Shown here one piece after another: positions 2,639 to 24,386 of a stretch of 30,612 bases of DNA (the stretch's first letter is position 1; every line of letters begins with the position of its first letter). The notes beneath the pieces are model-generated. The model saw nothing but the letters and a program-made list of their open reading frames with translations. It made no database searches and was not told the DNA's origin. The stretch is taken from positions 1-30,612 of IMG/VR virus record IMGVR_UViG_3300026187_000007; one strand, written 5' to 3'. The DNA comes from a virus (taxonomy: Duplodnaviria; Caudoviricetes). The position numbers and the translations under genes are program-made.

Positions 2639-3055
2639 TTAGAGAAAACTCTTTAACTTACTAGAATACTCTGTTATCATTTCTTCTAGTTCGTCAGTAG
2701 TAAATTTAGTTACTTCTCTGCTTTTTTCTAGTAATTCCTGCGATAAGTTATCGCCAAGATATAAAGAGTACTCGTATTGACGGCCTGCTTTAAATCTATT
2801 GCAGTATCTACATTGAGGCTTAACGTTTCTAGGATCCCACCGCGTAGCCATAGCAGTCCTTGAGATAAAGTGGCCCGCGTCAATAATGTCCTTCTCCCAG
2901 TAACCCTTTTTACCGCATGTTATACAAGTACAAAAACCTCTACTATCTGCGTTACTTAATCTTATATACTTAGAAAATACTACGTCTAGTTTTTTAACTA
3001 GTTTACTTCTAGTAGGTTTTTTAGAAGTCTTAGGCATCGTTTTACGTTTAAGCAA
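2639..3055 (-). CDS. ninG: NinG/Rap-like recombination endonuclease
   Basis: LDVVFSKYIRL, CITCG, DAGHFISR, RWDPRNVKPQCRYCN. Start may be the ATG of MPKTS. Confidence 0.85.
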   Translation of the reverse strand: MLKRKTMPKTSKKPTRSKLVKKLDVVFSKYIRLSNADSRGFCTCITCGKKGYWEKDIIDAGHFISRTAMATRWDPRNVKPQCRYCNRFKAGRQYEYSLYLGDNLSQELLEKSREVTKFTTDELEEMITEYSSKLKSFL

Positions 3056-3523: not shown

Positions 3524-3898
3524 CTAACTAGACTTACCTTTTAGTTTCTCGTAAGTTCTTAGACCTCCTAGTCCTAGCATACCCATTAGTACGGTAAATA
3601 AGCTATTAGTATCAAATTCTACTGGTTTTATATCGGTATAGGCTATAAGTAAAGGCATTACTATATAATGAAATGCGAAAGCTATACCGCATACCCAGCC
3701 TATAAAAGGTCTCCACCCCGCTACAAATACCGTGCGGTGATTGGCTTCTATTTCGTTAATTCTAGTTTGGATTTCTAGTAGCTCGTTAGGATCTAGTTCT
3801 TTTCCTTTTATAGCTTCTCTTATCTCCCAAGCTAGATTACCAGCTACTGATTTTCTACCGTCTCCACCTTTTAAAAGTCCTAAAAGTAGTTTTAACAT
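3524..3898 (-). CDS. Holin (GTA/3TM-holin-like)
   Basis: FVAGWRPFIGWVCG and LMGMLGLGGLRTYEK motifs, TM helices, lysis context. Confidence 0.8.
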   Translation of the reverse strand: MLKLLLGLLKGGDGRKSVAGNLAWEIREAIKGKELDPNELLEIQTRINEIEANHRTVFVAGWRPFIGWVCGIAFAFHYIVMPLLIAYTDIKPVEFDTNSLFTVLMGMLGLGGLRTYEKLKGKSS

Positions 3899-4062
3899 TA
3901 TTCCCGAAGCATCTTATTATAAAGTATCTGTGCTAACTTAACCTCGTGCTGGTTATCTATACAGATATCTTTAGTTATTTTTTTATACTCAGCTAGTTTC
4001 TGGTTTCTTGCACTTGCACACCCCGCTAGAGTCGTTACAAGTAGTATTAGTAGTATTCGCAT
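3898..4062 (-). CDS. 54 aa lipoprotein, candidate o-spanin (not in ORF track)
   Basis: MRILLILLVTTLAG|CASARNQ... has a perfect LAGC lipobox; stop overlaps the holin start (TAATG). Confidence 0.7.
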   Translation of the reverse strand: MRILLILLVTTLAGCASARNQKLAEYKKITKDICIDNQHEVKLAQILYNKMLRE

Positions 4063-4168
4063 GTTTGTTAGTTTGTAGAAGTAAAACTTCTGTTAGTTTG
4101 TCGATACTCTTTCGTATCTCTTTTAATTCGTTTCTAAGCCCGTTAGACTTAACTTTTACTTCAGCCAT
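3989..4168 (-). CDS. 59 aa coiled-coil protein overlapping the lipoprotein gene (not in ORF track)
   Basis: MAEVKVKSNGLRNELKEIRKSIDKLTEVLLLQTNKHANTTNTTCNDSSGVCKCKKPETS. Confidence 0.6.
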   Translation of the reverse strand: MAEVKVKSNGLRNELKEIRKSIDKLTEVLLLQTNKHANTTNTTCNDSSGVCKCKKPETS

Positions 4169-4569
4169 AGCGTACTACCAGTAGTATTAGTAAGTCCAGA
4201 CGGAATTAGGTTTAGTTCCTCCTTGATCGATAGAGTCGGTATCGCAGTGTATGAAATTTTTACTAATTCCGAGCCTCTTAAATCCTGCTTTAATAAGAGC
4301 ATTAAGTATAATGTATCTTTCTGCTCCGCTTCCGACTGCGATATCTGCGGCCTTTCCGATAAGGTGCGAGCTATTAGCTGAGGCTTTATATCCTTTTTTT
4401 CTAAGCTCCTCGTTATGTTCTTTAGTTCTATATCCGCTTGTAATCTTAAAGGGTATACCTGCGTACTCTCTAGCGAGATCGAGCTTGATAAGAAAGTCCC
4501 TATCCATATTAACAGACGAACCGCCCAAAGAAGGGCAGTCAAACTCCGAGAGAGAAAAATAATTAAGCT
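4156..4569 (-). CDS. Overprinted +1-frame ORF inside the endolysin (TTG start at 4542, or UGA read-through)
   Basis: Stop-free across the whole endolysin; endolysin codon choice avoids every NTA|R junction; hydrophobic N-terminus. Confidence 0.4.
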   Translation of the reverse strand, partial: SLIIFLSRSLTALLWAVRLLIWIGTFLSSSISLESTQVYPLRLQADIELKNITRSLEKKDIKPQLIARTLSERPQISQSEAEQKDTLYLMLLLKQDLRGSELVKISYTAIPTLSIKEELNLIPSGLTNTTGSTLWLK

Positions 4570-4573
4570 TCAT
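4187..4573 (-). CDS. Endolysin, peptidase M15 family
   Basis: EFDCP, ITSGYRT, SSHLIGKAADI and FIHCD Zn-peptidase motifs. Confidence 0.9.
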   Translation of the reverse strand: MKLNYFSLSEFDCPSLGGSSVNMDRDFLIKLDLAREYAGIPFKITSGYRTKEHNEELRKKGYKASANSSHLIGKAADIAVGSGAERYIILNALIKAGFKRLGISKNFIHCDTDSIDQGGTKPNSVWTY

Positions 4574-4719
4574 GCTATAATAGCAATTAGGACCATTAAT
4601 AAAAAGAAAGTAATAAATATAGTTTTACCTCTATTAAATATACCTCCGTTCCAATTAGTAATATACCAATTTTTAACCCAAGTTAAAGCTCTGTTTCCGT
4701 ATAGTTTTATCTTATCCAT
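4570..4719 (-). CDS. 49 aa membrane protein (not in ORF track)
   Basis: MDKIKLYGNRALTWVKNWYITNWNGGIFNRGKTIFITFFLLMVLIAIIA; TAATG and ATGA overlaps with its neighbours. Confidence 0.7.
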   Translation of the reverse strand: MDKIKLYGNRALTWVKNWYITNWNGGIFNRGKTIFITFFLLMVLIAIIA

Positions 4720-5000
4720 TATTTTCTTTTATCTCTTTGTAAGTATTCTAAGTCTTTCATAAAGCCCCTAACTTCTAGCTCCATAGTTCTAAACTCTGCC
4801 TCTAGTTTTCTCTGAGCTGGCCATGTATAACTCTGCTCGTTTTCTTTAAGCTTTTTTACTGCCGTTTCGTTAGCTTCTATCTTAGCACTTAAAGAATAAT
4901 AAGATCCTACTATAGAAGCAAACATAGCTAACAAAGTAACTATCTGGGGTATACTTATAGAAAGATCTGCTTTTTTGTCTCCGTTTATATCTATATCCAT
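4719..5000 (-). CDS. TM plus coiled-coil protein in lysis block (i-spanin/antiholin-like topology)
   Basis: One TM (IPQIVTLLAMFASIVGSYY) followed by heptad-like helices. Confidence 0.55.
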   Translation of the reverse strand: MDIDINGDKKADLSISIPQIVTLLAMFASIVGSYYSLSAKIEANETAVKKLKENEQSYTWPAQRKLEAEFRTMELEVRGFMKDLEYLQRDKRK

Positions 5001-5140
5001 TACTTTATTTTTTTAATTATTTGTATTATTGTATATCCTATTGCCAAGACAAGGGAAATCGTCTGAAGATAGGGATTAATCTCCGTTATTGATATTGCTA
5101 ATGCTATTGCGTTGAATCCGTATATCTTCAATTGTTCCAT
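5000..5140 (-). CDS. 46 aa holin-like membrane peptide (not in ORF track)
   Basis: MEQLKIYGFNAIALAISITEINPYLQTISLVLAIGYTIIQIIKKIK; two hydrophobic segments and a basic tail. Confidence 0.7.
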   Translation of the reverse strand: MEQLKIYGFNAIALAISITEINPYLQTISLVLAIGYTIIQIIKKIK

Positions 5141-12373: not shown

Positions 12374-13327
12374 TTAGTTAGCAGAGTTAGTAATACCGTA
12401 AGTTACGATATCTTCTACTACTCCGTACTGAACTCCTGCAGTAAATCGCATTACGACTCTTACGTTATCTGAACCGTCTAAGTCGCTCATATCTAATACT
12501 TTAACTTCGTTATGATCTGCTAAGAGACCAGTTCCAAAGAATAAGTTAGATTTCTCAGCCGCAATAGCAGTATTGTCTCCTAATCCGTTAGCTACGAAGA
12601 TTTTTACTCCGTCGAAAGTAAGAGATCCGTTATTCCACCATTGAGTACCCATCGCGTTAGTACCCGCAGCACCTAGTCCAGAAGAACCAAATCCTCCTAA
12701 AGCACGAACGTAAGCTCTAGCGATATTCTGAGAAACGTATACATTAAGATCTTCAGCACCGTAAAGAGCAGAAGGAATAGCGTCTACGATTTTTCCTAGC
12801 TCAGTAATTACGTTAGAAGCAGTTACTGTAGTAGAAGCTACTTCTTGAGCCGCTGGTAAGTCCGCGTCTAAAGCTAAAGTAGTAGAGAATCCGTCGAACT
12901 GTCCATTAGTAGAAGTATCTCCTGCCCAGATAGAGTTTTCAGTTCTCTGCGCTACTTTTGCAGCTACATGAGAAATTAAGAAATCGCTAAAAGAAGGAGG
13001 TAAATCGTGGTGCGCTGAATAGCCCATTTGAATTGCTTCCCAGTCTGAGATAAAGTCTTTCTTACAAAGTTGTAAGTTTACTTGCTGAAATTCTGGTTGA
13101 AGAACTCTCTCAGTAAGGGTAATTGTAGAAGTTGCGTCAAAGTCGCATGAAGCATCTTTTACGATATCGTTAGTAGATACTTTCTTAATTACCTCTTTAA
13201 ATTTTACGTTAGGTTTAACTGTAATCCCTCCGTTTTCGATTGTAGATCCACTTAGAAGGGCCGCACTAATATATTGACCAGCCGATTCCCCTGCGTAAGT
13301 AGAAGTAATTGAAGTTGTTGTTGCCAT
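12374..13327 (-). CDS. Major capsid protein
   Basis: 317 aa, follows the acidic scaffold gene, HK97-like size and motifs, terminator downstream. Confidence 0.8.
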   Translation of the reverse strand: MATTTSITSTYAGESAGQYISAALLSGSTIENGGITVKPNVKFKEVIKKVSTNDIVKDASCDFDATSTITLTERVLQPEFQQVNLQLCKKDFISDWEAIQMGYSAHHDLPPSFSDFLISHVAAKVAQRTENSIWAGDTSTNGQFDGFSTTLALDADLPAAQEVASTTVTASNVITELGKIVDAIPSALYGAEDLNVYVSQNIARAYVRALGGFGSSGLGAAGTNAMGTQWWNNGSLTFDGVKIFVANGLGDNTAIAAEKSNLFFGTGLLADHNEVKVLDMSDLDGSDNVRVVMRFTAGVQYGVVEDIVTYGITNSAN

Positions 13328-13332
13328 TTTAT

Positions 13333-13953
13333 TTAATTATTAATTTTTGAAATTTTACTTAATACTCTGTCGTAAGTAGTCGTAGCTCTTTTCTGAGCAA
13401 ATAGGTTTAAATTACGATCTACTTCTTTTTCTGGGTTATGTTTAACCTTAGGAATCTCCGAAAGCTCTTCTTTAATTTCTTCTTTCGCTTCTTCCTCTTT
13501 AATCTCTTCGCTAAGTTCTTCCTTAGGCTCTTCAGAAACTTCCTCGCTCATTTCTTCCTTGCTTTCAATCATAGCCTTAATCTCTTCGATCATAGACTTA
13601 ACCTCTGCAAGTTCTTCTTTTGTAGCGTATGCCATTTCTTCTTTATCTTCTTCGAGTTCTGTTTCCTCGTTAAGACTTTCCTCGCTAGGTTCCTCTTCCT
13701 CTTGAGCTGCGCCAATAGAATCGATAATTCCCTCCTCTTTGACCATTAAGACGTTCCCGTCCTCTAAAGTATAGTCTCCTACGGGTAAAGCTACTTTTTC
13801 ATCTTCAGTAACGATAAAGACCTCTTGGCCCGCAGCGAAAGACTCTGCTTCGATAACCGTTCCATTTTCTAAAGTAGCCGTCGCTAATTGTACTTCTTCC
13901 GTTTCGATAGAAAGAAGTTCTTTTGCTTTTTTAAGTACTTCGGTTGCTTTCAT
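13333..13953 (-). CDS. Capsid scaffolding protein
   Basis: Glu-rich coiled coil with LPVGDYTLEDG repeat, upstream of the capsid gene. Confidence 0.7.
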   Translation of the reverse strand: MKATEVLKKAKELLSIETEEVQLATATLENGTVIEAESFAAGQEVFIVTEDEKVALPVGDYTLEDGNVLMVKEEGIIDSIGAAQEEEEPSEESLNEETELEEDKEEMAYATKEELAEVKSMIEEIKAMIESKEEMSEEVSEEPKEELSEEIKEEEAKEEIKEELSEIPKVKHNPEKEVDRNLNLFAQKRATTTYDRVLSKISKINN

Positions 13954-23641: not shown

Positions 23642-23898
23642 TTCTTAAATTTTTCTAACTGTTTCTTTTCTAATTCTATCTTTTCTTTTTCGAAGGCTAA
23701 AAATAATAGAGCTTGGTGCATGTTTAATCGGGTAGCAATATCGAAGCGGGTAGCATCTCCCTTAGCAAGTCCGTAAATTGATTGGAACCAGCCCCACTTC
23801 TTTCCAAAGCCGCTAATACTTCCGTATTCATTTGGTTCGGAGCTTCCCTCTTCAAATAATTCAGGATAGTTTCTAGTAACTCGTTGTTTAAACGGTAA
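23638..23898 (-). CDS. -1 frameshift extension of tail assembly chaperone (GT-like, 249 aa fusion)
   Basis: G-T9 slippery run at 23897-23906; -1 frame open for 86 codons to a TGA overlapping the next ATG. Confidence 0.75.
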   Translation of the reverse strand, partial: LPFKQRVTRNYPELFEEGSSEPNEYGSISGFGKKWGWFQSIYGLAKGDATRFDIATRLNMHQALLFLAFEKEKIELEKKQLEKFKK

Positions 23899-24386
23899 AA
23901 AAAAACCATAGCTCCCATCGCTATACCTAGAGGCATCTTCTTAAATACCTCAGCATTATCTAGGCCCTTATATTCTTCTATAAGATATTTACCTTCTTTC
24001 TTATAGTTAATAGGTCTATATAGGACCGCCATAGCTTTATGGATTGTTTCCCACTCCGTAAGGTTTTCGTCTAGATCTATAAACTCCCCTATAGTCATAT
24101 CGTCGAGCTTAGGGATAAATCCGTATTCTATACCTTCTAAACTAAACGTAGGAACTAGATCTGTTTTTTCAGTAAATAGCCTATCTATATCTCCTAAGAT
24201 TTCTTTTATACTAGTAACTCTTATAGTAGCTATATCTTTAAGCTCTAGGCCGCAGAATATCTCTACCGTCTTATGGAATAAGAAATTAGAGTTTTGGTTT
24301 TCTTCCGTATTTATCTTATCGAATCGCTGATATTGTTCTAGCGTAATCTCGTTAAGGTTTTCGGGTACGTTTATTTCTAGCTTCAT
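23724..24386 (-). CDS. Tail assembly chaperone (G-like)
   Basis: Contains the slippery site; heads the tail operon. Confidence 0.65.
   Translation of the reverse strand: MKLEINVPENLNEITLEQYQRFDKINTEENQNSNFLFHKTVEIFCGLELKDIATIRVTSIKEILGDIDRLFTEKTDLVPTFSLEGIEYGFIPKLDDMTIGEFIDLDENLTEWETIHKAMAVLYRPINYKKEGKYLIEEYKGLDNAEVFKKMPLGIAMGAMVFFYRLNNELLETILNYLKREAPNQMNTEVLAALERSGAGSNQFTDLLREMLPASILLPD

Follow-up and report, generated by a model that had tools for sequence, protein, structure and literature searches.

In phage lambda the Rz1 gene is nested in the +1 frame of Rz (PMC6116005), and i-spanins are described as N-in, C-out helical class II membrane proteins that bind via their C-termini (Kongari 2018, PMC6139136). 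The cited section of the latter paper also considers that a spanin subunit might be replaced by an inner-membrane lipoprotein or by an outer-membrane protein, and how phages without spanins break the outer membrane is treated there as an open question. In Staphylococcus phage 187 a holin-like gene has been placed out of frame within the endolysin gene (Loessner 1999, as cited in PMC4113783). Unimolecular spanins, u-spanins, have been annotated in two flavobacterial phages, and the cited portion of that survey of North Sea flavobacterial phages reports u-spanins and membrane proteins and mentions no nested gene (PMC8776804).

Here we describe a gene overprinted in the +1 frame of an endolysin gene, in a stretch of viral DNA of 30,612 nucleotides (IMG/VR record IMGVR_UViG_3300026187_000007, positions 1 to 30,612) that we call the window. 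The lambda Rz/Rz1 arrangement, a lysis-cassette gene wholly nested in the +1 frame of another, is similar, and the predicted +1 product would resemble Rz as an N-in, C-out helical membrane protein that binds via its C-terminus (PMC6139136, PMC6116005). Unlike in lambda, the host gene is an endolysin gene and not a spanin gene, and the +1 gene has no partner lipoprotein in 79/85 loci, no constant lipobox and no spanin-family match. In phage 187, too, a membrane protein is encoded out of frame within an endolysin gene, but the host of that phage is Gram-positive and the nested product is a proposed holin. The window has a separate holin, and its +1 product consists of a single N-terminal helix, followed by a long polar part and by a conserved tail that extends past the endolysin stop. 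The unimolecular spanin gp11 of phage T1 is also a single envelope protein of similar size, but proteins of its type require a lipobox at the N-terminus and a membrane helix at the C-terminus, which are seen in 1/73 and 0/73 of our representatives.

We found no description of the +1 gene in the literature searched, a search with most subscription journals and all supplements outside its scope. We regard it as a genuine family of overprinted genes that lacks annotation; its general kind is known, the host gene and the protein are new, and the function is predicted. Annotation pipelines overlook the +1 gene or call it in place of the endolysin.

The lysis cassette and its +1 frame

The window is an AT-rich segment of about 30 kb from a tailed-phage genome, and all recognisable genes are on the minus strand. 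Judged from the sequence, the host of the phage is likely a flavobacterium. The sole cultured-phage match of the ORF at 12374-13327 is to the Nonlabens phages P12024S/L (31% identity), the best matches of the terminase are to Flavobacterium phages (49%), and a Shine-Dalgarno-like motif is found at 0/38 window starts; the same has been reported for Bacteroidetes (PMC6847099). The features of the lysis cassette are collected in Table 1.

Table 1. Features of the lysis cassette and of the overprinted gene, with positions in the window
Feature	Positions	Strand	Remarks
46 aa hydrophobic ORF	5000..5140	-	in 82/85 fully flanked open loci; without Pfam or PHROG match
93 aa ORF, one membrane helix and helical C-terminal part, i-spanin candidate	4719..5000	-	weak phrog_7686 Rz-like match, E 0.002
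49 aa membrane ORF, one of two interchangeable upstream families; TGA overlaps endolysin ATG	4570..4719	-
Endolysin of the M15 peptidase family, 128 aa; host gene of the +1 frame	4187..4573	-	Pfam Peptidase_M15_3 E 9e-11; phrog_894 endolysin E 9e-26
Overprinted +1 gene, 128 aa from the probable start TTG 4542	4156..4542	-	stop-to-stop 4569-4156
Hydrophobic helix at the N-terminus of the +1 protein (residues 1-19), a predicted membrane anchor/export signal	4486..4542	-
K-D-T-L of the +1 protein, in which D-T-L matches the motif for O-glycosylation in Bacteroidota	4309..4320	-
C-terminal motif T-N-T-T-G-S-T-L (family consensus T-N-T-V-G-S-T-L)	4168..4191	-	spans endolysin stop and 18-base spacer 4186-4169
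59 aa ORF; ATG under the end of the conserved motif	3989..4168	-
54 aa predicted lipoprotein (lipobox L-A-G-C), o-spanin candidate	3898..4062	-	in 6/85 fully flanked open loci
Holin, 124 aa	3524..3898	-	GTA_holin_3TM E 1e-9; phrog_3427 holin E 1.5e-22

Several genes of the cassette vary among relatives. Either of two interchangeable families can occupy each of the two slots upstream of the endolysin: first a coiled-coil protein with one helix or with two, then a membrane protein of 49-52 aa or 55-59 aa. The 93 aa ORF of the window is swapped for the two-helix family in many relatives. Downstream, the 59 aa ORF, which has a Cys-rich end and no membrane helix, overlaps the gene of the 54 aa lipoprotein by 74 bases, and the two apparently come and go together as a module (in 12 and 11 genes; also in L509-L513). 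A short, very basic ORF starting M-G-K-A/S-L-N-R follows the endolysin tail in 10/149 open genes (L010 and L018 among them) and in the closed gene L076. Behind the holin, some relatives (L018:3594-3959, L047:3750-4115 and L086:2625-2990, among others) have another M15 peptidase gene, which is divergent with about 45% identity; its +1 frame is closed by 8-13 stops in 9 copies, and the window has no such paralogue.

The earlier note on this DNA, made from the sequence alone, claimed that a +1 frame is kept open through the entire endolysin, and its counts could be reproduced. The endolysin has 11 Leu codons (CTT 6, CTC 4, TTG 1), 3 Val codons (GTT 1, GTC 2) and 11 Ile codons (ATC 4, ATT 4, ATA 3), with a C after each of the 3 ATA. 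An NTA codon would have created a +1 stop at 20 positions (10 Leu, 2 Val, 8 Ile), and there is no such stop after the TGA at 4572-4570. The frame is open from 4569 to the TAA at 4158-4156 and would give a protein of 187 aa by read-through or of 128 aa from TTG 4542. With resampling according to the codon usage of the window, 13.6 +1 stops are expected and none is seen; 0/100,000 draws were stop-free, and the analytical P is about 4e-11. The synonymous-codon shuffle that the note had proposed gave P = 0.008 when done within the gene, and all 36 other window ORFs that were tested contain +1 stops, at least 5 each. That the frame is in phase with the UGA of the upstream ORF follows automatically from any ATGA overlap and is no evidence by itself.

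Other window ORFs also stood out in the ORF-wide scan of codons and frames (1841-2161, 13333-13953, 2639-3055 and 23724-24386). Two other ORFs have a low use of NTA (0.33 and 0.32) and a +1 frame that is not open, a NinG-like gene has a +1 run of 63 codons, and a 220 aa ORF a +2 run of 72 codons. Over the endolysin there are antisense ORFs of 103 and 115 aa, at 4251-4562 (+) and 4415-4762 (+).

Conservation, loss and selection

A stop-free +1 frame in homologous endolysins, which the earlier note had named as a check, was found in 75 of the first 80 viral loci (61-100% identity), where no stop occurs after codon 8. Our main, unbiased set consists of 108 distinct complete genes that were found by endolysin (frame-0) peptides only; 83 of these are open and have the C-terminal tail, 13 are closed without the tail, 9 are closed paralogues, and 3 combine the tail with 5' stops. 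A wider set of 193 genes adds loci found by the +1 protein or by the tail pattern and is therefore enriched for open genes. It comprises 149 open genes, all of which have the tail, 41 closed genes without it (of which one is a record with an indel) and 3 mixed cases. In a midpoint-rooted FastTree protein tree of 100 representatives, the topology of which may be distorted by recombination, the open genes group in a single clade (support 0.80), within which the frame was lost about five times, and the tail is absent in each of these lineages. The frame reaches endolysins that are only 42-55% identical to that of the window, and a further divergent lineage has it open too. The 44 loci from bacterial genomes were excluded from the counts; all eight that were inspected have 3-14 +1 stops and no tail. 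The locus is a clean and widespread example of a gene born within an old enzyme gene, and its origin, the roughly five losses and the closed paralogue provide built-in controls.

RNA sequencing runs contained relatives as contigs and in small shares only, and are no guide to translation or habitat. A few records are irregular. L112:231-626, L134:1504-1893 and L131:809-1168 keep the tail and have +1 stops within the first 31-57 codons; a later TTG would begin a different hydrophobic segment in L112 and L134, and the three genes may use later starts or be decaying. The database proteins P0007, P0015, P0043, P0047, P0052, P0069, P0070, P0071 and L269 switch between the endolysin frame and the +1 frame, each at another place, and are likely the result of assembly indels, which stay hidden since both frames are open.

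In 61 open genes, NTA is used in 0/962 cases before a purine and in 157/403 before a pyrimidine; the corresponding numbers are 18/47 in three closed genes set aside and 3486/5990 in flanking ORFs. The zero is a consequence of selecting open genes, and the informative part is that NTA is kept where it is harmless. The earlier note had seen a recent import from a genome with a low-NTA codon bias as an explanation that would overturn its claim, and since NTA persists where no stop arises, such an import can be ruled out. An antisense gene is ruled out as the cause as well, as only 0, 8 and 0 of the 61 open genes are without stops in the three antisense frames, which are thus not kept open in relatives.

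The clearest traces of selection are found at the tail. The spacer of 18 bases behind the endolysin stop reads N-T-V/T-G-S/N-T-L in the +1 frame, and T, G and T are fixed in 83/83 of the unbiased open genes, although each of them is written with all four synonymous codons. On the tree of the 149 open genes these three codons have zero changes in positions 1-2 and 35-36 changes in position 3. Serine in the spacer is written as both AGY and TCN, and the variation is confined to third positions. T-x-G-x-T is also found in the last 40 residues of 72/78 protein hits, obtained with search profiles that contained the motif. Within the overlap, the earlier note had proposed to look for reduced synonymous change, and this is what we see: differences at 327/1999 (0.16) fourfold sites in 62 disjoint pairs, against 67/186 (0.36) at free spacer positions and 83/356 (0.23) in 13 pairs of closed genes whose proteins have diverged to the same extent. 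In 73/73 open representatives the +1 residues beyond codon 30 exceed a stop-free synonymous null in polarity (mean z -3.3 in open genes, -2.8 in the window, +0.4 in closed genes), counts that are not independent trials since the representatives are related.

The interior of the +1 protein is weakly conserved (33% mean column identity), which is what one would expect if no protein were made and the frame were due to chance, an imported codon bias, an antisense gene or a signal in the DNA or RNA. This is, however, very improbable, as NTA is avoided only where it would make a stop, the antisense frames are not kept open, the spacer varies in third positions only with Ser in both codon families, and no conserved fold was found. 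The overprinted gene that the earlier note envisaged, with a hydrophobic helix at the N-terminus of its product, agrees well with the conservation of the frame and the selection at the protein level, and from sequence comparison the +1 frame is almost certainly a protein-coding gene under purifying selection.

Entry into the frame

An ATG one codon before the E-F-D motif of the endolysin, or a TTG within it, is found in 134/149 open genes and is common in closed genes too; the TTG at the place of 4542 is found in 32/41 of these. There is no ATG, GTG or TTG near the 5' end in 10/149 open genes. On the tree of 149 the base that forms the TTG has changed 2 times; the third positions of the five remaining Phe codons have 4, 5, 13, 22 and 25 changes. 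The TTG at 4542 has an A at -3, which is a positive determinant in F. johnsoniae (PMC6847099). Translation from an own start is likely, and TTG 4542 is the candidate start codon in the window.

The alternative in the earlier note, a read-through device at the UGA of the upstream ORF, does not hold as a general way into the frame, as 64/149 open genes have no route for it: the ATGA overlap is missing in 20, a +1 stop follows the UGA before the conserved frame is reached in 38, and in 6 there is no open frame upstream. In 80/149, including the window, nothing blocks the route, and five genes could not be judged. All 10 genes without a normal start codon have the route, so that read-through may be a side entry in these, and conceivably in the window. 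Six of the ten are close relatives (75-86% identity) in which the own helix is partly degraded, and together with the many open routes this would be in line with a frame that is mainly reached by read-through of the upstream UGA, or by frameshifting from the endolysin, to give a fusion protein. We consider such a fusion protein improbable, since besides the 64 genes without a route the upstream gene comes from at least two unrelated families and no shared slippery run was seen by eye in the 5' sequences. The ten cases also amount to only about five independent events, for which chance could suffice, most lineages being unblocked.

Anatomy and possible role of the +1 protein

The N-terminal helix has a Kyte-Doolittle mean over 19 residues of 1.66, the maximum of the protein in the window. 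The most hydrophobic segment is N-terminal in 72/73 representatives, the helix scores at least 1.6 in 62/73 open against 6/23 closed representatives, and a segment that reaches 1.6 after residue 30 is found in 0/73. The N-terminal segment is more hydrophobic than the null by about the same amount per residue in open and closed genes (0.39 vs 0.31; window z -0.19), and much of the helix is therefore a by-product of the endolysin sequence. The body of the protein is rich in Gln, Thr, Lys and Glu and has no second hydrophobic segment. K-D-T-L makes up residues 75-78 and T-x-G-x-T-L residues 120-125, and behind the latter relatives have another 3 to at least 17 residues, which vary.

D-S/T-hydrophobic is the O-glycosylation motif of non-cytoplasmic proteins in Bacteroidota (PMC12871550). 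D-T-L is present at the site of the window's K-D-T-L in 48/73 open representatives, and the general motif occurs anywhere after residue 25 in 57/73, where 13.6 are expected, a count that mostly reflects one inherited site; among distant members it is 19/31. A Cys near residue 20, after the helix, is found in 33/73 near and 33/35 distant members and is missing in the window copy. It mostly derives from a Met-Leu pair of the endolysin, and a strict lipobox, defined as [LVI][ASTVI][GAS]C, is formed in 1/73 near and 5/35 distant members.

AlphaFold2 gives the window helix at residues 1-20 with a pLDDT of 96, and both models have long helices at about 2-50 and 70-100 and a disordered C-terminus, with low confidence overall (pTM 0.21 and 0.25). 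A complex prediction of the endolysin with Zn and residues 66-128 had a score of 0.00 and is counted neither way on binding. The window copy matches only mTERF in Pfam, at E 0.06. Among 44 copies there were five weak single-member Pfam matches, and there is no family match in PHROGs (best E 0.04 among 49). The best hit of a PDB profile search had E 0.4, the best score in the ESM Atlas was 0.76, and two queries with the +1 protein in a cultured-phage collection matched nothing. Protein searches gave 12, 63 and 10 unnamed matches, all of which resemble the same overprint by sequence; the DNA context was checked for one distant lineage (3/6 loci), and for a second one (P0033) no locus was found. 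The LysM motif is G-D-T-L-W. A likeness of the tail to it was rejected, as the W stems from the ATG of the next gene and the frame ends.

The +1 protein is quite probably exported to the periplasmic side. Our best explanation, to which we give a probability of roughly 40%, is that it assists lysis in a spanin-like manner, anchored in the envelope and with a docking motif at its C-terminus. The gene would be translated from its own start, the product would be anchored in the host envelope by its predicted N-terminal helix, and the polar tether would present the C-terminal T-x-G-x-T-L to an envelope partner during lysis in the manner of a spanin. We infer the lysis role and the spanin-like job, as we do the start codon and the export, and the position of the gene within the lysis cassette is a supporting setting.

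The earlier note had suggested an i-spanin, and the single N-terminal membrane helix fits this, as does the soluble helical C-terminal part in the low-confidence models; an o-spanin-like partner, on the other hand, is not found nearby in most loci. In a search of same-strand ATG ORFs of at least 30 codons, no lipoprotein gene was found within about 1 kb in 79 of the 85 fully flanked open loci. The window has its lipoprotein at 3898-4062, which is not adjacent to the +1 gene. As no phage lipoprotein travels with the gene, the candidates for a partner are a conserved host envelope protein or the membrane coiled-coil protein of the cassette, and the motif being fixed among changing phage neighbours suggests the host protein. 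Against the spanin-like explanation, the type of anchor is not constant in Cys or lipobox, and there are no matches to spanin families in PHROGs or Pfam. In the closed lineages we saw no replacement gene, so the +1 gene is dispensable.

Three more specific identities were rejected. An o-spanin is incompatible with the lack of a Cys in the signal region of the window copy and with the single strict lipobox among the 73 representatives, and a u-spanin with the lack of a C-terminal transmembrane helix in all of them. A Cys-bearing type paired with a neighbouring lipoprotein or i-spanin was also considered, but the Cys tracks the two-helix upstream family, in 29/30, which may be plain linkage.

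The same anatomy would suit a brake on the timing of lysis, either an antiholin like T4 RI or an inhibitor of the endolysin, with T-x-G-x-T as the binding tip. Either type of anchor would do for such a brake, in agreement with the variable Cys, loss without replacement is what one would expect of a modulator, and the overprint couples the gene to the endolysin, which is (by construction) the sole gene present in every locus. We nevertheless find a brake rather unlikely, because the motif stays constant beside two holin subfamilies (94 and 12 of 149) and beside endolysins down to about 42-50% identity, and the protein has no similarity to PHROG, Pfam or PDB families.

It is also conceivable that the protein does its work before it leaves the ribosome, as an arrest peptide of the SecM/MifM type that senses secretion. 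A stall at T-x-G-x-T-L would cover the next start, usually that of the holin, and would hinder termination of the endolysin 18 bases upstream until the chain is freed by the pull of membrane targeting. SecM, MifM and the ApdA/RQH peptides also combine an N-terminal localisation signal, a variable spacer and a C-terminal motif beside a downstream start, and three of four criteria in the cited part of an arrest-peptide survey (bioRxiv 10.1101/2023.09.02.556018) describe the +1 protein: an N-terminal membrane or export segment, a spacer of more than 30 residues and a conserved C-terminal motif. In 145/149 open genes the next ATG lies at a constant offset under the last residue of the motif, while the stop of the frame comes 3 to at least 17 codons later, and this ATG starts the holin in 106/149 and small ORFs otherwise. 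These systems differ from ours, which is a phage gene within an endolysin, with a holin downstream and no sec or yidC gene (secA, secDF), and a Thr/Gly motif without the Pro and Arg of the arrest motifs in that survey. There is moreover no conserved RNA structure or hairpin at the tail (RNAalifold empty; 2/40 with z below -2), four relatives have the motif without an ATG there, and the glycosylation motif, if selected, would indicate a finished periplasmic protein. We hold arrest to be quite unlikely. If true, it would tie the output of endolysin and holin to the state of the membrane-targeting machinery of the host, a kind of lysis timer that we did not find described in the literature searched.

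An envelope protein with a job outside lysis is quite unlikely, too. It could for instance block a receptor or superinfection late in infection and have arisen inside a late gene. The dispensability in several lineages would agree with this, the constancy of the motif next to phage genes that vary hints at a partner from the host here as well, and a tail-fibre-like gene lies directly upstream of the lysis cassette. There is however no positive evidence for it, and the position in the cassette and the link to the holin start speak for lysis.

A lipoprotein spanin was not seen in most of these cassettes, which are likely from flavobacterial phages, and the +1 gene, as a spanin-like accessory, is a concrete candidate for how phages without spanins may break the outer membrane. 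The six-residue motif is encoded in the spacer between endolysin and holin, and it can therefore be changed without touching either of them.
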